Virus record (IMG/VR): IMGVR_UViG_2579778633_000005
Span: 1 to 21,861 of that record
Reading direction: 5' to 3' (one strand)
Length of the DNA stretch: 21,861 nt
DNA from: a virus
Lineage: Duplodnaviria > Heunggongvirae > Uroviricota > Caudoviricetes
In this document: piece by piece, positions 2,443 through 21,861 of the stretch
Numbering within the stretch: position 1 is the stretch's first letter
Layout of the letters: every line of letters starts with the position of its first letter
Program-made: the position numbers and the translations under genes
Notes under the pieces: generated by a model
What the model saw: the letters and a program-made list of their open reading frames with translations, nothing else
Databases searched by the model: none
Told to the model about the DNA's origin: nothing

Positions 2443-2561
2443 CACAACAATTGAATATCCAGAAAATTATTAATGATTATTCATTTTTTTGTCAAGTTAT
2501 GTAATAAATCCTATAGCATACGACGATACTTGGATTGATTAACGCCGCCAAGCTGCATGGT

Positions 2562-2613
2562 ATGCATGAGATGCCATTTAAAGCATCATGTTGCGCAATC
2601 ACATCTCATGCAT
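2562..2613. repeat. Perfect 12-bp inverted repeat (ATGCATGAGATG / CATCTCATGCAT) with 28-bp spacer containing palindrome TTGCGCAA, 30 bp beyond the tailspike stop
   Basis: Read directly from the sequence; lies in the convergent int/tailspike intergenic region; no T-run. Confidence 0.3.
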
Positions 2614-2642
2614 ATTAATAATATTCATACAACGCAGAACAG

Positions 2643-4730
2643 CTATCCTATAACAACCCCATCAGTTAAACTTGTTGGCGGAGACCCAAATTTCCTAACC
2701 AACTGTCCTGATGAGTTCCTGAATAGATAGAATTTGCTACCAAATTCCATGCATGGAATACCTGTTCCTGTGGTGGTAGCCAATCCGAGATTTGTTGCAA
2801 TGAATGCCTTTCCATCGAAATTAATAATATTGCTTACGTTATTTACCCCGTGGTAGTTTGAAATCGAGCTAACCCAGTCTAAAGCTGTAGTTTTTGGATT
2901 AGTAATGTTCAATGCATTTGCAGCGGCCGTCAGCTTGTCTATGCGCAGGTTATCGATAGTTACTTTTCCGTAGTTATCAATCGCCAAAGCAGTGGCAGGG
3001 TTACGTATATCGATGTTACGTCCTACAAACTCGCTAATGTTCTTTATTCTCGGAGCGGTTTTAATTCCGGTCAAGGTGCAAGTATAGTTCTCGACTTTGA
3101 CGACCCCAAAGGTATCTCCTCCGTTAGTCGTGTTTATACTGAGAGCATTCTGCACGTTTTCACTTGTTACATTTAAAATTTTAGCATCAATTACGCCAGA
3201 GTTCTCAATATTAACGTCAGCGTTAGCACCGTTTATGTACACACCATCGAGTGTAGCTTTACGAGTAAGTGGAGAGTTGCTCGGATACATGCTAATGATA
3301 ACCCCCATCGTATTATGACGAACTGATGGGTTATCTTCATCCTCTACCGTATTCTGGTGATAGATTCTTGTACCTTGCCCTATGTACACGTCATAGCTTC
3401 CAGATAGACGCATACCCCACTTGCCTTTCTTACTCCCGATATTGTTGCAATATGCACCGAGAACAACCCCAGACGATATCTGGAATACAGGGCTGCCGTC
3501 AGAATTGTCTTCAGAGGTCATCAATATTGGCTCTCTCCAGCGGGATACCTGATATGACCCGCCGATTACCTTGAAGTTAGCGGTACTGTAGAAGGCCATG
3601 CCGTTACGGTCAGTATCATAAGTGCGACAACGCGTCACCTGCACATCAGTACAGAACATAAACATTATCCCAGGTTGACCGCCACGAGAGCCATAAGCAT
3701 TAACAACCGAGCAGTCAGTTAATTTAATGCGAGTGGCCTGGTGGAACCAGAAACCATTAAATGTTGACTTATCTGATGCTGTGTCCCACGTCACATTAGA
3801 CTTATTACCATCAATAATAAGCCCATTTACCGTGATATCATAATGCTCTGGCGTTTCAGCGTCATAACTATAGCCTTTACGGTTTGTAATACCTGTAGAT
3901 ATGCCAAGGTAGCTTCCGGGCTTAAGCTTAAGTGTGCACCCGTAGGCGTCAATGGTCGTTCCTGTTTTAACAATTAAAGGTGTCCCGTCCCAGTAAATTG
4001 TTCGTGCGGGGAAATGAACAAGAGGCGATCCTGAATTTAGAGCGGCATTAATTGCAGCAGTATGGTCTCCAGCATAATCCATCTCAGGGGTAATAAATTG
4101 TTCAACGCTGACCGGTACGCCATATCCACGCTGTGCATTGCCAACACATTTCCAGTTCGAATCTGGTGACGATCCAGCTAAGACATTTATTGGATAAGGA
4201 AACGTCCCATTGTACTGATAGTGGTAACCATCACTATATAAAGCCACATCTTTACTGTCATTTAGCGTCCCGCCAGAAACGAAACTAGCTATTCTTTTAT
4301 AATACGATTCAAGATAGTCACTATATACATTACCGTTGTATGAACTACCAACAAGCTTATCTCCTCCATTGGTGGTTATTTCCTGTCGTAATTGATCAGG
4401 GTCATACTTCAGTACATTAGGAAAATAGAACTGCTGAGCACCGTAAGCATCATATACAGCCATAGAATGGCCTTGCACAGTTACGAACTTAGCAATCTGT
4501 CCGTTATATACAGGGTAACCAGCAGCGTTAAGGATGATTGGTTGCGAAACAGGAACGTGAGAACCGTCTTCGTTCTCCACATAAACCTGAACCTGGTTTT
4601 CAGGATTTACCGGGTCAGTGTCAATTTTACCGATATAAATTTTGCCATTAGCTACAGCTTTAAAAGAACGCGCCATAGTGAAGAGTTGCGATGGCATGCT
4701 TACCACAACATTGGCTGTAATGTCTGTCAT
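2643..4730 (-). CDS. Tailspike protein (695 aa): P22 gp9-type N-terminal domain fused to a divergent receptor-binding/depolymerase domain
   Basis: First ~110 aa ([113 protein letters not shown]) are near-identical to the P22 tailspike head-binding domain as I recall it. The remainder is Gly/Asn/Thr-rich and unrelated to the P22 receptor domain. Confidence 0.85.
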
Positions 4731-4798: not shown

Positions 4799-4813
4799 AG
4801 ACCACGGTGGTCT
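4799..4813. promoter_or_regulatory. Mnt operator-like palindrome AGACCAC-G-GTGGTCT
   Basis: Perfect 7-bp inverted repeat around a central G, sharing the CCACGGTGG core of the P22 Mnt operator as I recall it. Located between divergent mnt and tailspike starts, next to a candidate mnt promoter (-10 GATAAT at 4834-4839). Confidence 0.5.
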
Positions 4814-4876: not shown

Positions 4877-5128
4877 ATGGGAAGAGATGACCCGCAATTT
4901 AATCTGCGGCTACCTTACGAATTAAAGGAAAAACTAAAACAGCGAGCCAAATCCAATGGCCGCTCTCTTAATTCAGAATTAGTTCAGATAGTGACTGATG
5001 CTGTATCAAAGCCATCCAAAATTTCAGGCTATCGAGACGATGCGGAACGCATCGCTGATGAGCAGTCTGAACTTGTTAAGAAGATGGTGTTTGATACGCT
5101 GAAGGATTTGTACAAAAAACCCACCTGA
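4877..5128 (+). CDS. mnt: Mnt repressor (ribbon-helix-helix, Arc/MetJ family, 83 aa)
   Basis: Sequence MGRDDPQFNLRLPYELKEKLKQRAKSNGRSLNSELVQIVTDAVSKPSKISGYRDDAERIADEQSELVKKMVFDTLKDLYKKPT closely matches P22 Mnt as I recall it. RBS GAGG 9 nt upstream. Confidence 0.85.
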   Translation: MGRDDPQFNLRLPYELKEKLKQRAKSNGRSLNSELVQIVTDAVSKPSKISGYRDDAERIADEQSELVKKMVFDTLKDLYKKPT

Positions 5129-5144: not shown

Positions 5145-5564
5145 CTAGTCTTGCTTTGTGGACGGTATAAGGGATGCATTTGCCTCTTTAGGCTTCAAGG
5201 TATACATACCGCCATTAAATGGATCTACAGCAAGCCAACCAATTAACCCACCAAACACAAGGTTTCCACCAATATACCAACCATTAGCATTGGCTTTGAT
5301 TGGCAGGGTAACTGGTTCGTACCCATCCTTCTCCATAGTGATCTGGTAGCTCTTTTTGCCAAAATAACTACCATCTGACTTGGCAAGAGTTACTCCTTGC
5401 GGGGTCTTACCTTGCGCAACAATCACGCCTGATTCGTCTTTTACCTTAAAGCTCGCGCCGGAAGGATTGCTGTTCACTTGCACAAGCTGTGTTTCGTCAC
5501 CAACAATAGTTGCGCACCCAGATAACAATATAGCGCCAGCAACGACGCCGATAATCCTCTTCAT
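5145..5564 (-). CDS. Predicted outer-membrane lipoprotein (139 aa), function unknown (moron)
   Basis: Signal peptide MKRIIGVVAGAILLSGC with lipobox LSGC and Ala at +2. Segment SNPSGASF...GKTP...KDGYEP resembles a PEGA-type beta domain (tentative). Sits where P22 carries sieA. Confidence 0.6.
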   Translation of the reverse strand: MKRIIGVVAGAILLSGCATIVGDETQLVQVNSNPSGASFKVKDESGVIVAQGKTPQGVTLAKSDGSYFGKKSYQITMEKDGYEPVTLPIKANANGWYIGGNLVFGGLIGWLAVDPFNGGMYTLKPKEANASLIPSTKQD

Positions 5565-5698
5565 ATTACTTTCCGTTTTGTTAGAATCAGAAAGATCTTA
5601 ATAATAAAAAGTATTTTCGTGAAGATATTGTCGATTGAGTTAATAACTCATTTACACCCAACAGTGCCATGATGGCAAAGATAAGGAGAGTTAATCAT

Positions 5699-6184
5699 AT
5701 GAAAAAATCACTGTTAATTATCCCGCTTCTGCTGGCAGGGTGTGCAAAGGTTAGCGACTATCAGGAAAATTGCGAACAACGCTATCCAAAGCTTAGCGAT
5801 ATGGCTAATTGCCTTGATGCTAGCGTGAAGAACGACTCACGCATGGCATCAGCACCAACACCTAAGTTATATGTCCTTGCTGCGAAGATGCTCGGGCAAG
5901 GTGTCGATGATGGCAAGATAAGTGACGCGCAGGCAAGACTTGAGCTTCAGAATCTTTATGTTCAACTACAAAGCCAAGAACAAGCCCAACAAATAGCGCA
6001 AAGCCAAGCATTCCAGCAGGCTTTATTGAATTATCAGGCTGTAAACACAATGCAAGCGATCGAGCAAAAAGCGAGACAGCCTGTTATAACTCAACCCTAT
6101 CCAACACGAGTTGACACTTACACAAACTGCAATTCAGGGTTTGGAAATACAGTCACATGCAACAGTAGCAGTAACATCAGATAA
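5699..6184 (+). CDS. Predicted outer-membrane lipoprotein (161 aa) with Gln-rich coiled-coil-like segment, function unknown (moron)
   Basis: Start chosen at ATG 5699, with RBS AAGGAG at 5683-5688, rather than the track's 5669. Signal peptide MKKSLLIIPLLLAGC with lipobox LAGC and Ala at +2. Divergently transcribed from the neighbouring lipoprotein gene. Confidence 0.55.
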   Translation: MKKSLLIIPLLLAGCAKVSDYQENCEQRYPKLSDMANCLDASVKNDSRMASAPTPKLYVLAAKMLGQGVDDGKISDAQARLELQNLYVQLQSQEQAQQIAQSQAFQQALLNYQAVNTMQAIEQKARQPVITQPYPTRVDTYTNCNSGFGNTVTCNSSSNIR

Positions 6185-6274
6185 CAATCAGCAAAGGTAT
6201 CGCCTATGCAGAGGGATAAGATAAACCTCGCGTTCTACATATTTGGTTTTTGCACGTTCCTGGTGTTTGAAAAG

Positions 6275-10271: not shown

Positions 10272-10727
10272 CTATCTCCTGTGATTCAGGAAGTCGATTA
10301 GTTCTTCGCGTGTGGCGCTGTAAAAAGTCACGTCATCCACGCCTTTGAAGTATTTCTTGATGGTTCCTACACGCTTAAGGCCAATCATTGCGCAGTACAT
10401 CTGCCCGTGGCGGAATTTGCGCGCAGCGAACGATGTGACGCACTGAACGGTGGTGTTAGTCAGAATGTATCGCCAGAACGCCAGCCCAATTTCCTTGCTG
10501 AAGCCGCGAATCTCTGGCAGGTACATGGCGTGGCAATCGAATGTCAGCGGCTGAATCTCCTGATAGTAAACAATGCCGCCGAACTGACCGTGCACGTTAA
10601 CCTCAAAGTAACGGCATTCAGGTTTGTAGTCGTATCCATCACCGTTGTTGCTCCCGGCGATAATGTCAGGGTGATTTCCTACGGCTTCTATCAGGTCGAT
10701 GTTTCGCGTTGGTTTGAATGTAATCAT
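10272..10727 (-). CDS. P22 gp14-position protein (151 aa), probable ejection-protein assembly factor
   Basis: Assigned by synteny between the tail needle and gp7 genes; translationally coupled (ATGA overlap with the upstream gene). No recognisable motif. Confidence 0.5.
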   Translation of the reverse strand: MITFKPTRNIDLIEAVGNHPDIIAGSNNGDGYDYKPECRYFEVNVHGQFGGIVYYQEIQPLTFDCHAMYLPEIRGFSKEIGLAFWRYILTNTTVQCVTSFAARKFRHGQMYCAMIGLKRVGTIKKYFKGVDDVTFYSATREELIDFLNHRR

Positions 10728-11428
10728 CAGTCAATCAGCCCATGTAATCTAAGTGCTGTTTCAAGCGCCAGAATACGCTGCCGCGCCTGCTCCAAACCTG
10801 TAGCGAGAGCTGCGACTTCGGATTGTGTGTACGTAGTGCCGACCGTGTATGACTGGTTAGCGTTGAATGAACCAAGAAGTGGCGTACCTGTGGCTGCAGT
10901 CCATCCGGTCTGCCTTGCTCCAACGACCTGAATTCCATCAACTGAATATGATGTTTTTACATCCAGCGGTGACGCAAGAGACTGCGATTCGGTTACGGTT
11001 TTCGATACGTAATCACTCTTAATGTCAGATACATCGCTTTCTACGTCATCCAGTCTTTGGTCAACAGTGACCAGATGCGCCTGAATATCGATAACCTCAT
11101 CCAGCAAGTAATCAACATCGCTACGCAGTACGACTATCTTCCCTTCGGCGGTTGTTAACCTGACCTCAAGGAGATTTATCGCTTTTGTGTTTGCGGTGAT
11201 TCTTGCATCGTGATCTGCCAGCTCGACGTCCTGTTCATCGTTTTTCACCTGAGCATCGTAAGCGCCCTGACCAGCCTGATTTGCCTTCCCGGCAATTGCG
11301 CCAACATCAGCACCCTGATTTATGACATACAGCATGTAAGACTGGCTGAATATATTGCGTGGCAAAATTGAAGCATCAAGGCGCGTAGCCTGAACCGCGA
11401 CAGGATTATTCAGTGATGAATCAACCAT
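10727..11428 (-). CDS. Tail needle protein, P22 gp26 family (233 aa)
   Basis: N-terminus [73 protein letters not shown] and C-terminal ...ALRLHGLID match P22 gp26 as I recall it; central coiled-coil region. Confidence 0.85.
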
Positions 11429-12846
11429 TACTCAATCCTTATCTGGCAGCCTGACAGAGTGACAGGTGACTTCGTGATAACGCGCAATTTGAAGCCGACA
11501 TTTTTCCTTATTCGCCCGACACGCTTCCACAAAACACGCTTGTCGTAAACGAACGGTTCATTCTGCTCAATCATCTGCTCACGCCCGTAATTGATGCCGT
11601 CAGTGGTTGCAGAGAGGAACAGGCGGTCAGCGTACTGAGCAACACCAGTCGATGATTCAACTTCCAGATCAAAACATCTGGCGTTCTCAGCTTTGAAGAG
11701 TGGTGTAAACAACAGGTGTTCTTGCTGTAGCCCATACTGGCTGCTGATATCGAACTGCAATTTGCCGATAACCGATTCCAGCTTATCTCCGCACGTTATC
11801 TGATTGCCTTCGTAAATGAAGTCGATAGCGCGGTACACATCGTCATACAGGCCTGTTTTCAGTACACACCATTGCGGACCATTGGCGCTTGAAGATGCGT
11901 CGTACACGAGAACATGGCGCGGAAGGTGGATAATCAGCAACTCATGAGCATCAAACCGCAACGATTCCATCACGCCATCAGCCAGTTCATCAGCAGTGTA
12001 GGAGCGGAGGATTTTCTCAATGCTCGCGCTGGCGATTGGTGATACCTGACCGGAGCCGATGATGTAAACAGACGGCGCACCTGTTGCCGGATTGCTGATG
12101 AACGCATACGAATCAGCAAACGGCGTTTTGCAGTAGGTTCCGGCGATTCCTTTTTGCACCATCAACGATGGCTGGGCGACATACAAAGCGGCACCAACAG
12201 TGGTTGCACCAGTCAGGGAAAAATATTCAATCGTCGATGAACCAAAGCAGACGATGAAGTCTCGCCATGTTCCGATGCCGATGATGCCGTCAGGCTGCGA
12301 TTCTGCGCGATATTGTGCGCTGTATCGGTCAGGATGTGATTCGTCTTCAAGGTCAGTGATAAACCATGAATCAGTGCCGTCTTTTGACCACGCATAACGC
12401 CCACGTAAGCGCGTAATGTCGCGTACTGAGCCTAACTCATACTGCGTGAATCCGCTGTCTGTAGGCCAGTTTGAGACGGTTTTAACCGTGCCATCATAGC
12501 GATACTCGACCAGTTTCCCGTTAACGCCTACCGCCTGTGATGTCCGACCATGCGCCATTGATACACGACCACTTCCGGCGACGTCACCGACTTCACTTTC
12601 GCCTTTGTACAGCTTGCCACCACACACGCGATAAACAGCATTCTGCGCCATGTTGTACTCGACGCCACGCGATACGCCGTTCACATCAGAACGTTTGGCA
12701 ATGCCCGGGAATGAGCGAAGATATCCGCTGCTGTTAAGGATTTCTTTTGGTGTAGCCAACATATTCACTGGCAGATAGTCGATATAGTCGGCGTTTCGGA
12801 AGTCTTTGCCGACACCTTTCATAAGCGGAAGTTGCTGAATCGGCAT
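11428..12846 (-). CDS. Tail accessory protein, P22 gp10 family (472 aa)
   Basis: Same length as P22 gp10 and correct synteny (gp4-gp10-gp26); start overlaps the upstream stop. Confidence 0.7.
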
Positions 12847-12905
12847 TTATTCACCTATGCGTTTGGGATATCGCCATCAATCAGAGGGAGATCGCCTGGA
12901 TAATA

Positions 12906-13337
12906 TCAGTCAGATGTAAACACGTCATATTTATTACCCTGTCCTACAGGAAAATCTCCACGTCGTCGCATTGAAGGAACAACCAGAGTGTCGGTCATCA
13001 AGGCATCATATGAGCGTTGGGCGTTACTGAGAACTTGCGGAGTTGGTTCAAGGCTGTAATCAGATAGCATTCTCAGCAATAACTGATAGCCTACTGCGTG
13101 TTTGTATTTTCTTGGAAGACCTGACTCATCATCTGGTAATGGCTGATCATCTCCAGTTGCGAAAGCGTAACCAATGTCGCCGGGGTTAATCATCCACTCG
13201 GACATCATATCTTCCAGATCATTTACACCATCTTCAATTGATTGCGGCTCAACATCAGTCAGCGATGCATTAGAAGCAATAGCAAACTTACGAAGCGCAA
13301 AAAGGACGATCTCACCCTTTGTCAGTACTGTTGCCAT
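12906..13337 (-). CDS. Tail accessory / head completion protein, P22 gp4 family (143 aa)
   Basis: N-terminus [48 protein letters not shown] aligns with P22 gp4 as I recall it ([32 protein letters not shown]...). Confidence 0.75.
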   Translation of the reverse strand: [143 protein letters not shown]

Positions 13338-13539: not shown

Positions 13540-14106
13540 TTACGGATTACCGAAGAACTGACCGCCCATGTGAGGGTTAAAGCACACATATGCAGGCAGT
13601 AAGTCGAAGCGCATTTTTTGCACGTTGGCATCGCCATCTGCGTATTTATGTACGCGGATGGAGAAACCTTCATATGTTGCAACAGCAGAATCAATACTGT
13701 GCAGTTTCGGCAGTGGGATAGAGCCAAGTCCACAGAAGAACTTGTTATAGAACAGGTTTGGCTTCATTGTCTGGCTAGCAGTGCCTACTACAGATACGTC
13801 ATCGCCTGCATCTACCTGACGACTTACAGAGTTGTACTGCGGGTTTGTAGTGTCATAAATCGGAACACCAGAAAGCGTAACCGTCACATCGCCACCGCTG
13901 TCTGAATCAGCATCAGCAGTAACCGTTGCAGTGAAGCTAATTGGTGTGGCTCCGTTATACAACGCCTGTTTGGTCTGCTGTTGCAGCCAGTAGGTATTGG
14001 TGAATTTGACCTGATCACCAGCTTTCAGAAAACCTGTAACGCTGGCTTTCGCTCCGGTCAATGTTACAGTGAACTGGTACGGGGATTCATTCGGGCCAGC
14101 GCCCAT
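13540..14106 (-). pseudogene. Probable 3' remnant of the major coat protein gene (188-codon ORF), N-terminal part deleted
   Basis: Occupies the coat position just before the gp4 block but is less than half the ~425 aa of P22-like coat proteins. Its 5' end overlaps the 3' end of the truncated terS reading frame. Identity as coat is inferred from position, not from recognised sequence. Confidence 0.45.
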
Positions 14107-14405
14107 TTGCGGGTATCAACGCGAAGTCTTGCCTTTGCCACCTCGGCGGCATCTGGAATCGCAGTGTCAGCAATTTCGAATATCTCTTCGAAAATAGAAT
14201 CAGCTCGTGCCTCAGTTGCCTTCGCGTACTTGTCGCGAAAATCCTCATGCTTTGCCAACCAGCGGAAAACAGTGGACTTATCCGGCATACCAGGACGCTT
14301 ACATACTTTCAGCAAACTTTCGCCAGAAGAAAGCAACGAGCAGATATCGTCAGCCACCTCCGGCATATAATCAGAGGGGCGACCAGCTTTTGGTTCAGTC
14401 GCCAT
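14064..14405 (-). pseudogene. 5' remnant of small terminase subunit gene (113-codon ORF; frame lost after ...ARMNPR)
   Basis: MATEPKAGRPSDYMPEVADDICSLLSSGESLLKVCKRPGMPDKSTVFRWLAKHEDFRDKY... matches my recollection of the Sf6-type small terminase (~140 aa). The ORF ends early and is followed directly by a coat-like 3' segment; no terL, portal or scaffold genes are present. Confidence 0.5.
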
Positions 14406-15356: not shown

Positions 15357-15794
15357 TCATCGAAGGCATTGCGTCCTGATGTACTCCTGCAGGTAGTTAA
15401 CCTGCGCGGTTATCTTGTCGATTCCACTTCGGAGACGGTAATAATTGAGTTCAGCATCTGCTGTAAGTCTTGGGCTTTCTCCATCGCCCATGCTGCTGGC
15501 TCCGGCCGTTGACTTTGCACAGGTGGCGGCGACTTGCAGGCGCTTACGACCAGCAGAAACATCAGCACGGAGGCTTTCGATAGTCTCGTTAGCATCAGCA
15601 AGCTCCTTTGTGTATCTGGCGTCGAGTTCCGCTACATCACGTTGACGCTTCTGCATGTCAGCGATTGTGGATGCGGCCTTATCGCGCTGCTCTTTGTAGA
15701 TCATGGCGTTATCACGGTAATGATTAACAGCCCATGACAGGCAGACGATGATGCAGATAACCAGAGCGGAGATAATCGCGGTGACTCTGCTCAT
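15357..15794 (-). CDS. Rz: Spanin, inner-membrane subunit Rz (145 aa)
   Basis: [30 protein letters not shown]... matches the lambda Rz N-terminus; start overlaps the endolysin stop by 4 nt as in lambda. Confidence 0.85.
15410..15601 (-). CDS. Rz1: Spanin, outer-membrane lipoprotein subunit Rz1 (63 aa), embedded in the +1 frame of Rz
   Basis: Out-of-frame ORF wholly inside Rz; signal peptide with lipobox LVVSAC followed by a Pro-rich stretch ([16 protein letters not shown]), the classic Rz1 architecture. Confidence 0.7.
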
Positions 15795-16267
15795 ACCTCA
15801 ATCTCTCTGACCGTTCCGCCTGCTTCTTTGAATTTTGCAATCAGGCTGTCAGCCTTATGCTCGAACTGACCATAACCAGCCCCCGGAAGTGAAGCCCAGA
15901 TATTGCTGCAACGGTCGATAGCCTGACGGATATCACCGCGATCAATCATCGGCAAAGCGCCACGCTCTTTAATCTGTTGCAATGCCACAGCGTCCTGGCT
16001 TTTCGGAGAGAAGTCTTTCAGGCCAAGCTGCTTGCGGTAGGCATCCCACCAACGGGAAAGAAGCTGGTAACGTCCGGCTGCTGTTGATTTGAGTTTTGGG
16101 TTTAGCGTGACAAGTTTGCGAGGGTGATCGGAGTAATCAGTGAATAGCTCTCCGCCAACAATGACGTCATAACCATGATTTCTTGTTTTCTGACGTCCGT
16201 TATCAGTTCCCTCTGACCACGCCAGCATATCGAGGAACGCCTTACGTTGATTATTGATTTCCACCAT
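15791..16267 (-). CDS. R: Endolysin, lambda R-type lytic transglycosylase (158 aa)
   Basis: [62 protein letters not shown]... is essentially identical to lambda R as I recall it. Confidence 0.9.
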
Positions 16268-16574
16268 CTTCTACTCCGGCTTTTTTAGCAGCGAAGCGTT
16301 TGATAAGCGAACCAATCGAGTCAGTACCGATGTAGCCGATGAACACGCTCGTTATATAAGCGAGATTGCTACTTAGTCCGGCGAAGTCGAGAAGGTCACG
16401 AATGAACCAGGCGATAATGGCGCACATCGTTGCGTCGATTACTGTTTTTGTAAACGCACCGCCATTATATCTGCCGCGAAGGTACGCCATTGCAAACGCA
16501 AGGATTGCCCCGATGCCTTGTTCCTTTGCCGCGAGAATGGCGGCTAACAGGTCATGTTTTTCTGGCATCTTCAT
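16251..16574 (-). CDS. S: Class I holin, lambda S-type (107 aa) with dual-start motif Met1-Lys2-Met3
   Basis: [69 protein letters not shown]... is essentially identical to lambda S; 17-nt overlap with R as in lambda. Confidence 0.9.
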
Positions 16575-16801: not shown

Positions 16802-17323
16802 TTAATAAATAACCCATGTCTTATAGTTAAGAATTCCTGCAATTGTTGCTTTTGATACGCCGTACATTCTCGCCATTTCACGCTGTGACATTGATTTGCA
16901 CGCACGTATTTCTTTCACTTGCTCAGTAGTGAGTTTTGCACAATAGTGACGCTCACCACTGATTGGGTTTAGCAATCCTGACTTGCTTGCATGGACCATA
17001 TTCTGGCAGCCAGTAACCCACTCAAGATTATCTACTCTGTTGTCAGACTTGATTCCATTTATGTGGTTTACCTGCGGAAGCGAGTTTGGATTATCAATGA
17101 ATGCAGCCGCCACTAACCTGTGAATGTAATGTTTTTTAAGTGCTCCTTTGTCGCGGAGATTTACATACAAGTAACCATCACTATGATTAACAGGCTTAAG
17201 CCATCTGCCCTTCTGTAACCTTCCACGAGCATCAACTCTCGAATGAGAATAAACGCGGCCATCAGTAGTTACGGAGTATTTACCTTCATATCCTGCGATA
17301 TCTTTCGCTGTTTCGCTTAGCAT
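16802..17323 (-). CDS. HNH homing endonuclease (NUMOD4 + HNH_3 + C-terminal HTH; 173 aa)
   Basis: NUMOD4-like GYEGKYSVTTDGRVYS; HNH_3-like HRLVAAAFIDNPNSLPQVNHINGIKSDNRVDNLEWVT; C-terminal HTH-like ...SQREMARMYGVSKATIAGILNYKTW. RBS AAGGAG upstream. Inserted between lambda-like pR'/tR' sequence and lambda-like sequence upstream of S. Confidence 0.75.
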   Translation of the reverse strand: MLSETAKDIAGYEGKYSVTTDGRVYSHSRVDARGRLQKGRWLKPVNHSDGYLYVNLRDKGALKKHYIHRLVAAAFIDNPNSLPQVNHINGIKSDNRVDNLEWVTGCQNMVHASKSGLLNPISGERHYCAKLTTEQVKEIRACKSMSQREMARMYGVSKATIAGILNYKTWVIY

Positions 17324-17646: not shown

Positions 17647-18270
17647 CTAACGTGTGACCGCGTTCAAAATGTTGTCTGCGATTGACTCTTCCTTGTGGCA
17701 TTGCACCACCAGAGCGTCATACAGCGGCTTAACAGTGCGTGACCAGGTGGGTTGGGTAAGGTTTGGGATTAGCATCGTCACAGCGCGATATGCTGCGCTT
17801 GCTGGCATCCTTGAATAGCCGACACCTTTGCATCTTCCGCATTCTTTCTCAACAACTCTCCCCCACTGCTCTGTTTTTGCTATATCAACCGCACGGCCTG
17901 TACCGTGGCAATCTCTGCATCTTGCGCCCGGCGTCGCGGCACTACGGCAATAATCCGCATAAGCGAATGTTGCGAGCACTTGCAGTACCTTTGCCTTAGT
18001 ATTTCCTTCAAGCTTTGCCACACCACGGTATTTCCCCGATACCTTGTGTGCAAATTGCATCAGATAGTTGATAGCCTTTTGTTTGTCGTTCTGGCTGAGT
18101 TCATGCTTACCGCAGAATGCAGCCATACCGAATCCGGCTTGTGATTGCGCCATCCCCATAGCAGCCATCACATCAGTACCGGAAAGAGAGTCAGAAGCCG
18201 TGGCCCGTGGTGAGTCGCTCATCATCGGGCTTTTTGGCGAATGAAATTTAGCTACGCTTTCGAGTCTCAT
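17647..18270 (-). CDS. Q: Late gene antiterminator Q, lambda type (207 aa)
   Basis: MRLESVAKFHSPKSPMMSDSPRATASDSLSGTDVMAAMGMAQSQAGFGMAAFCGKHELSQNDKQKAINYLMQF... is essentially identical to lambda Q as I recall it, including the Cys-rich zinc-binding segment. Confidence 0.9.
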   Translation of the reverse strand: MRLESVAKFHSPKSPMMSDSPRATASDSLSGTDVMAAMGMAQSQAGFGMAAFCGKHELSQNDKQKAINYLMQFAHKVSGKYRGVAKLEGNTKAKVLQVLATFAYADYCRSAATPGARCRDCHGTGRAVDIAKTEQWGRVVEKECGRCKGVGYSRMPASAAYRAVTMLIPNLTQPTWSRTVKPLYDALVVQCHKEESIADNILNAVTR

Positions 18271-20991: not shown

Positions 20992-21861
20992 CTATATTGC
21001 TGAAGGTACAGGCGTTTCCATAACTATTTGCTCGCGTTTTTTACTCAAGAAGAAAATGCCAAATAGCAACATCAGGCAGACAATACCCGAAATTGCGAAG
21101 AAAACTGTCTGGTAGCCTGCGTGGTCAAAGAGTATCCCAGTCGGCGTTGAAAGCAGCACAATCCCAAGCGAACTGGCAATTTGAAAACCAATCAGAAAGA
21201 TCGTCGACGACAGGCGCTTATCAAAATTTGCCACGCTGTATTTGAAGACGGATATGACACAAAGTGGAACCTCAATAGCATGTAACAGCTTCACTAATGA
21301 AATAATCCAGGGGTTAACGAACAGCGCGCAGGAAAGGATACGCAACGCCATAATCACAACACCGATAAGTAATGCATTTTTTGGCCCTACCCGATTCACA
21401 AAGAAAGGAATAATCGCCATGCATAGCGCTTCGAGTACCACCTGGAATGAGTTGAGATAACCATACAGGCGCGTTCCTACATCGTGTGATTCGAATAAAC
21501 CTGCATAAAAGACAGGAAAAAGTTGTTGATCAAAAATGTTATAGAAAGACCACGTCCCCACAATAAATATGACGAAAACCCAGAAGTTTCGATCCTTGAA
21601 AACTGCGATAAAATCCTCTTTTTTTACCCCTCCCGCATCCGCCGCTACGCACTGGTGATCCTTATCTTTAAAACACATGTTGATCATCATAAATACAGCG
21701 CCAAATAGCGAGACCAACCAGAAGTTGATATGGGGACTGATACTAAAAAATATGCCGGCAAAGAACGCGCCAATAGCATAGCCAAAAGATCCCCAGGCGC
21801 GCGCTGTTCCATATTCGAAATGAAAATTTCGCGCCATTTTTTCGGTGAAGCTGTCAAGCAA
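20992..21861 (-). CDS. cscB: LacY-family oligosaccharide:H+ symporter, sucrose permease CscB-like; 3' portion only, 5' end beyond the window
   Basis: Hydrophobic multi-TM protein; ...LVKLLHAIEVPLCVISVFKYSVANFDKRLSSTIFLIGFQIA... aligns with the LacY C-terminal region and matches my recollection of CscB, whose csc locus maps near argW/dsd in sucrose-positive E. coli. ORF runs to the window edge; the first codon is not a real start. Confidence 0.6.
   Translation of the reverse strand: MLDSFTEKMARNFHFEYGTARAWGSFGYAIGAFFAGIFFSISPHINFWLVSLFGAVFMMINMCFKDKDHQCVAADAGGVKKEDFIAVFKDRNFWVFVIFIVGTWSFYNIFDQQLFPVFYAGLFESHDVGTRLYGYLNSFQVVLEALCMAIIPFFVNRVGPKNALLIGVVIMALRILSCALFVNPWIISLVKLLHAIEVPLCVISVFKYSVANFDKRLSSTIFLIGFQIASSLGIVLLSTPTGILFDHAGYQTVFFAISGIVCLMLLFGIFFLSKKREQIVMETPVPSAI

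Follow-up and report, generated by a model that had tools for sequence, protein, structure and literature searches.

The P22-like (Lederbergvirus-type) podoviruses carry tailspikes built to a common plan, exemplified by P22 gp9, Sf6 gp14, HK620 gp9 and the CUS-3 endosialidase tailspike: a shared N-terminal anchor is joined to a beta-helix body, and the gene closes the late operon, adjacent to int. Receptor-binding domains (RBDs) are known to be common to P22-like phages or prophages and the tailspikes (TSPs) of the genus Kuttervirus—Det7 TSP3 shares its domain with P22 and CBA120 TSP1 with a Salmonella Minnesota prophage (PMC11721090)—and the transfer of RBDs across genera has been analysed systematically in phages of Escherichia coli (Pas et al., 2023; PMC10408124). 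In these accounts the anchor follows phage taxonomy and the RBD moves horizontally. The gene described here has the anchor, position and body plan of the P22-like tailspikes and represents the same phenomenon, but its RBD subtype differs from those in both accounts and is absent from both.

The gene was found in a 21,861-nucleotide stretch of viral DNA (IMG/VR record IMGVR_UViG_2579778633_000005), hereafter the window, as a single, full-length open reading frame of 695 amino acids on the minus strand (2643..4730), with GGAG 10 nt 5′ of its ATG. Identical 695-aa proteins are present in the databases under the name ‘phage head-binding domain-containing protein [Escherichia coli]’. About 70 nt 5′ of the start codon, a consensus scan gave a terminator-like hairpin on the same strand (4799..4813), a pattern match only, which calls to mind the terminator found ahead of P22 gene 9. 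We are confident that the gene encodes a complete P22-like tailspike, composed of an anchor and an autonomous receptor module and derived from a podovirus prophage at argW of E. coli. The evidence set out below establishes its domain layout, its fold class, the exchange of its module between phage types and purifying selection on that module.

The left end of the window holds yfdC (1–933), the tRNA-Arg(CCU) gene argW (1009–1083) and the integrase gene intS (1209–2399) of E. coli. The gene order is gp4-gp10-gp26-gp14-gp7-gp20-gp16, a Mnt-like gene, tailspike, int and argW, with the gp homologs upstream on the tailspike strand. The partners of the anchor in the tail hub are encoded at 10727..13337 on the minus strand—a gp4-like adaptor (12906–13337), a gp10-like protein (11428–12846) and a gp26-like needle (10727–11428)—and match phrog_637, phrog_578 and phrog_1219 in PHROGs, as well as, at the identical locus L013, the Pfam families P22_Tail-4 and Phage_stabilise. 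The tailspike gene stands at the normal position for a P22-like prophage and the genes of the hub proteins that bind the anchor are present; anchor, gene position and partner genes all place it in the P22 family.

Other genes of the element were also noted. Between gp16 and the tailspike gene, in the region equivalent to immI, lie two lipoprotein-like ORFs (5145–5564, minus strand, 139 aa; 5669–6184, plus strand, 171 aa) that match phrog_6823 and phrog_6067, neither with a known function; they could be lysogenic-conversion or exclusion genes. A Mnt/Arc-like repressor gene occupies 4877–5128 on the plus strand, with no antirepressor gene (ant) between it and the tailspike gene; at the same place, the variant locus L017 instead holds a pair of Arc-like genes along with an antirepressor of the KilA-N/P22_AR_C type. 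A 173-aa HNH-endonuclease-like ORF (16802–17323, minus strand) lies between the lysis cassette (15357–16574) and the antiterminator gene (17647–18270), and a LacY/MFS-type permease ORF (20992–21861, minus strand) occupies the right edge of the window. The permease gene may be a pseudogene, because on L011 it is split into ORFs of 98 and 289 aa (890–2137), beside sucrose-utilisation-type genes (GH32, PfkB and LacI on L010).

Codons 1–113 of the tailspike gene (4392..4730, minus strand) encode the head-binding, or tail-hub attachment, domain of the P22 family. Residues 1–113 match the full 113-position profile of Pfam PF09008 (Head_binding) with an E-value of 1.2e-66 and 222.5 bits (cut-off 24), and residues 1–117/118 match the solved N-termini of Sf6 gp14 (7sg7, E 2e-64) and P22 gp9 (2vky/2xc1/1lkt). 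The earlier note had taken this N-terminus to be near-identical to that of P22 gp9. Its assignment to the P22-type anchor stands, on both the Pfam and the PDB matches, but near-identity overstates the likeness a little: the anchor is 75% identical to that of P22 gp9 and 91% identical to that of Sf6 gp14, with CUS-3/HK620-type E. coli alleles at 85–92%.

Past the anchor, the protein parts company with these relatives. Matches to P22, Sf6, HK620 and CUS-3 all end at residues ~117–135, those to ~180 further phage records at residues 117–162 (carriers of the module such as Se-B excepted), and no sequence similarity to the P22, Sf6, HK620 or CUS-3 tailspikes was found beyond about residue 125. Structural alignments of those four bodies with that of the window protein gave 10–13% identity and low TM-scores; since the bodies show so little similarity, receptor specificity is expected to differ from that of all four phages. 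At the DNA level, the first 374 nt of the gene are matched in 1,127 of 5,426 complete E. coli genomes, the remainder in only three. The junction or linker, approximately residues 114–127 (4350..4391, minus strand), contains both the swap point and the first residues of the module. The boundary, after KYDPDQ, is one that the window protein has in common with P22-like tailspikes; the CUS-3 record marks the same place as a ‘boundary sequence’. In alignments of relatives, a conserved block runs from LRQEI...GDK (residue ~115) to the C-terminus, and the module begins with a shared motif, D-x-LR-x-E...GDK, on all anchor types. DNA similarity to the two closest non-P22 carriers, one epsilon15-like and one P2-type, begins at window positions 4364 and 4347, and the 3′ edge of DNA similarity to non-P22 carriers is exactly the stop codon.

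Apart from its occurrence on the P22 anchor, the same module recurs on at least six other, unrelated N-termini, with 63–92% whole-protein identity in alignment, and four of these contexts were examined. In one (P0032, 793 aa), large virion genes are followed in order by a T7_gp14-like gene, the tailspike gene, an acyltransferase gene and lysis genes, an order that we read as that of an epsilon15-like podovirus. Another protein (P0035, 706 aa) belongs to a siphovirus, where its gene comes after those for the tape measure and the distal tail. A third (P0041, 692 aa) belongs to a myovirus whose tail is of the P2 type; here the gene fills the fibre position, beyond the baseplate genes gpV/W/J/I. 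The fourth, gp135 of Se-B (739 aa), is from a Kuttervirus with a cluster of four TSPs, in which it is the spike of TSP1 type. The module circulates among at least five phage types. Because it recurs on other anchors and DNA similarity ends at its boundaries, the break in the protein is a genuine and repeatedly used exchange boundary. The sequence break after ~110 residues and its identity as a domain-swap point, both proposed from the sequence in the earlier note, are thus upheld by the limits of the protein and DNA matches and by the recurrence of the module in other phage types. The family is nevertheless small: relatives of the module number 47 among 5.8 billion proteins searched and 42 among 1.84 billion cluster representatives.

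The closest phage counterpart is TSP1 of Se-B and Se-D (gp135, ‘tail protein’, YP_009948936.1; Kuttervirus, Ackermannviridae). The module is 77.5% identical to it over residues 114–695 and 82.9% over residues 200–695, and the best structural match in BFVD was a 739-aa protein, the length of Se-B TSP1, at 75% identity and a TM-score of 0.67. Under the scheme in which at least 75% identity over the receptor-binding module defines one TSP subtype (Sorensen et al., 2021), the window module belongs to the subtype of Se-B TSP1, on a different anchor. At the N-terminus the two proteins have nothing in common, with 8% identity over residues 1–113: Se-B TSP1 carries the Kuttervirus TSP1 anchor (TD1), by which it attaches to TSP4 in a branched complex of four spikes, whereas PF09008 takes that place in the window protein. 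The carriers differ too, Se-B being a virulent 158-kb myovirus and the window gene coming from a temperate P22-like podovirus prophage. The earlier note would have been refuted by a body near-identical to a characterised tailspike; none that has been characterised or solved comes close, and Se-B TSP1, the closest found, is itself uncharacterised. Hosts have been predicted for Se-B TSP2 and TSP3 and none for TSP1, and a 2024 review that tabulates Ackermannviridae TSPs whose receptors have been determined does not list Se-B TSP1 (PMC11721090).

Between diverged alleles of the module, dN/dS was 0.09–0.22, as expected for a functional protein and indicating purifying selection on the module. The alleles differ mainly at residues 406–480 and 536–650 (approximately window positions 3291–3515 and 2781–3125), and each of these variable segments comes in two forms, ~56–80% or 86–100% identical to the window allele. 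The two forms are distributed independently of anchor type, which points to recombination inside the module as well.

The earlier note had read the ~580-residue remainder as a Gly/Asn/Thr-rich beta-helix and proposed structure prediction as a check. Composition after the anchor agrees with this reading (Gly 10.3%, Asn 8.6%, Thr 9.1%, Ser 8.6%), and the monomer model is a right-handed parallel beta-helix, with the C-terminal part folding as the pectate-lyase-like kind used by phage depolymerases. In the AF2 model, a small beta domain precedes the helix (residues ~128–197; 4140..4349, minus strand), with strands at residues 125–197 and a pLDDT of 58–81. It bears a weak resemblance to a TSP1/Gp66 N-terminal receptor-binding domain: PF18668 was matched at residues 146–191 below threshold (E 0.004, 17.6 bits, cut-off 25), and Se-B TSP1 matches the same family strongly at its residues 91–156. 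The presumed polysaccharide-binding and -cleaving body follows (residues ~198–695 plus the stop codon; 2643..4139, minus strand), comprising cap helices (209–231), the right-handed parallel beta-helix and a C-terminal part.

Family searches agree at a distance. The window protein gave no match to Pfam PF12708 or PF13229 at E ≤ 1; two close homologs reached 21.3 and 19.1 bits against PF13229, below its threshold of 25.9, and relatives at ~30% identity pass PF12708, for example with 58.6 bits against 27. Single-sequence and profile searches for relatives of solved structure matched anchors only. Identity to pectate-lyase-like enzymes—the AlgE4 A-module (2pyg), an alginate epimerase/lyase (8ja4), a Klebsiella K1 capsule lyase (7w1c), GH87, GH28 and phi29 gp12—is only 11–16%; since identity is too low and catalytic residues are unmatched, neither mechanism nor catalytic sites can be transferred from these enzymes. 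A stretch of the module, Y289...P294-E295-H296-x-D298, seems to resemble the catalytic motif of AlgE4, a comparison that was dropped.

Invariant Asp, Glu and His residues are nonetheless present in the aligned modules, and the acidic residues that are invariant in all alleles include D307, D316, D339, D362, D374, E400, E407 and D408. Such residues are to be expected of a catalytic groove and count against the idea that the module is an adhesin-type beta-helix that binds its glycan without cleaving it. To our knowledge, nearly all podovirus and Kuttervirus tailspikes that have been studied are enzymes, and we regard the binding-only proposal as improbable. Trimerisation, enzymatic cleavage and the target of the tailspike we infer, the first two by analogy. 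Residues 1–113 are the adaptor, common to the whole family, by which the spike is attached to the gp4/gp10 tail hub. In residues ~114–695, a small beta domain is followed by a right-handed beta-helix of the pectate-lyase-like kind and then by a C-terminal part; as in all studied tailspikes, this module should assemble into a trimer that binds surface polysaccharide along the helix and then cleaves it. Cleavage would draw the virion down towards the outer membrane. The module itself was gained by recombination at the conserved D-x-LR-x-E boundary.

The prophage that carries this gene is damaged. A 113-aa fragment of the terminase small subunit (14064–14405) overlaps a 188-aa C-terminal fragment of the coat protein (13540–14106), and comparison with undeleted copies places a deletion junction near 14079/14080, with the loss of the terminase large subunit, portal, scaffold and most of the coat gene. 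With its head genes deleted the prophage is defective, so this element by itself cannot yield a virion that includes the copy in the window. Assemblies that have either this gene or the 86%-identical allele include GCA_036949165.1, GCA_014329955.1, GCA_043392265.1, GCA_029848295.1, GCA_965180985.1, GCA_019104655.1 and ET479. The exact protein occurs on at least 21 contigs; all ten loci shown adjoin intS/yfdC, at the argW site, and at nine of these the gene is identical to that of the window in nucleotides. When loci L009–L018 were mapped on the window, at least five states of the prophage were apparent, including apparently intact (L014, L016), with the head-gene deletion (L013), truncated by an insertion sequence (L012) and with larger deletions (L009, L010, L011). 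L010 and L011 have a common deletion endpoint at window position 6199/6200. In every state, the segment from the lipoprotein gene pair through the Mnt-like gene and the tailspike gene to int is retained, and the most economical explanation is that a single clone decayed very recently, its deletions happening to spare the attachment-site end.

We lean towards regarding the tailspike gene here as a relic in decay, without present function and still intact only because the prophage decayed so recently. In addition to the missing head genes, the zero nucleotide differences at nine of ten loci imply that selection has had no time to act, and a related copy in two complete genomes, ET670 and ET979, has already been broken by IS1/IS3. 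On the other side, the reading frame is full length with its upstream GGAG, and intact versions of the prophage exist. The relic reading concerns the present use of this copy rather than the identity of the protein and is compatible with the explanation of the gene as a P22-like tailspike; the copy in the window is a stranded but apparently undamaged allele in a defective prophage.

The 3′ flank of the gene bears on its target. A segment of 92 bp (2551..2642, minus strand) travels with the P22-type tailspike gene, as judged by blastn, and its far end is an empty site for an acyltransferase cassette. The window junction 2551|2550 corresponds to 10180|12143 in L021 and to 24217|26181 in ET670 (L007), so that the window lacks a cassette of ~1.96 kb (L021 10181–12142; L007 24218–26180) with its breakpoint 92 bp past the stop codon; the cassette edges are clean and show no obvious flanking direct repeat. 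The sister allele P0028 (86% identical) likewise occurs at argW in P22-like prophages, where an Acyl_transf_3+SGNH acyltransferase gene stands between tailspike and int; a gene of similar type comes after the epsilon15-like copy and after the tailspike remnants of ET670 and ET979. In three temperate contexts, an AT3-SGNH acyltransferase gene comes directly after the tailspike gene. In P22-like phages this place is a slot for O-antigen-modifying genes, occupied by gtrABC in P22 and oac in Sf6. We also considered whether the acyltransferase is co-transferred with the module and rejected this: the enzymes of epsilon15-like and P22-like carriers are only 35% identical over the AT3 domain and so do not form one travelling cassette.

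Among Ackermannviridae TSPs with a determined receptor, nearly all target the O-antigen of LPS, the sole exception being a Klebsiella KN2 capsule TSP (PMC11721090, Table 2). Together with the acyltransferase in an O-antigen-modification slot, this favours an O-antigen as the target of the module, which on balance we think probable; the target would most likely be an O-antigen repeat whose O-acetylation blocks recognition. It is unlikely, in our judgement, that the target is instead a capsule, K-antigen, colanic acid or other exopolysaccharide, in which case the module would probably be a lyase acting on a polymer containing uronic acid. A family with a colanic-acid-degrading label, phrog_8280, was matched over residues 1–686 at E 4e-109, ~110 bits above anchor-only matches, although that label is not experimental. 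This lead was dropped when tblastn with residues 200–695 found only Se-B and Se-D among phage proteins.

Host serotype was considered as a route to the receptor and led to no conclusion. Three complete genomes carry the module, and O loci were read in two of them, ET479 and ET670. In ET479 (L002/L003, NZ_CP100950.1 1,856,000–1,888,000, and L004), a Wzx/Wzy cluster between galF and gnd is followed in tandem by an O9-family wzm/wzt/wbdA cluster between gnd and his. That Wzx/Wzy cluster occurs in 16 genomes, none with a serogroup label and no other with the tailspike. ET670 has a rhamnose-type cluster unrelated to that of ET479, and its tailspike is an IS-broken remnant, the same as that in ET979. 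In ET479, there is also an apparent tandem duplication of the P22-like prophage, in which the lysis/Rha block occurs twice, ~40 kb apart, and intS is present in two copies; its many frameshifts suggest assembly errors.

A more far-reaching proposal is that the module is the first of a depolymerase family with a new specificity—for example, for O9-family polysaccharides as in ET479 or for a polymer shared by E. coli and Salmonella—and that the tailspike end is kept in every state of decay for the benefit of the host. The evidence is compatible with this, as the module has no characterised relative and all five deletion states keep the block, but we hold it to be very unlikely.

The sharing of RBDs across phage genera was already known; what is added here is a rare and uncharacterised RBD subtype on a P22-type anchor. 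This is an ordinary case of receptor-module swapping among phages, in which the subtype is rare and its portability unusually well documented, and it leaves the understanding of tailspike biology unchanged. It adds one rare, well-delimited, uncharacterised receptor module to the catalogue of exchangeable tailspike domains. The clear edges of the module, with the D-x-LR-x-E motif at the 5′ end and the stop codon at the 3′ end, are useful for engineering, and nature already shows it on anchors of the P22, epsilon15, siphovirus, P2-type baseplate and Kuttervirus types. Once its glycan target is identified, the module would provide a serotype-specific depolymerase or typing reagent, along with the receptor for Se-B TSP1.
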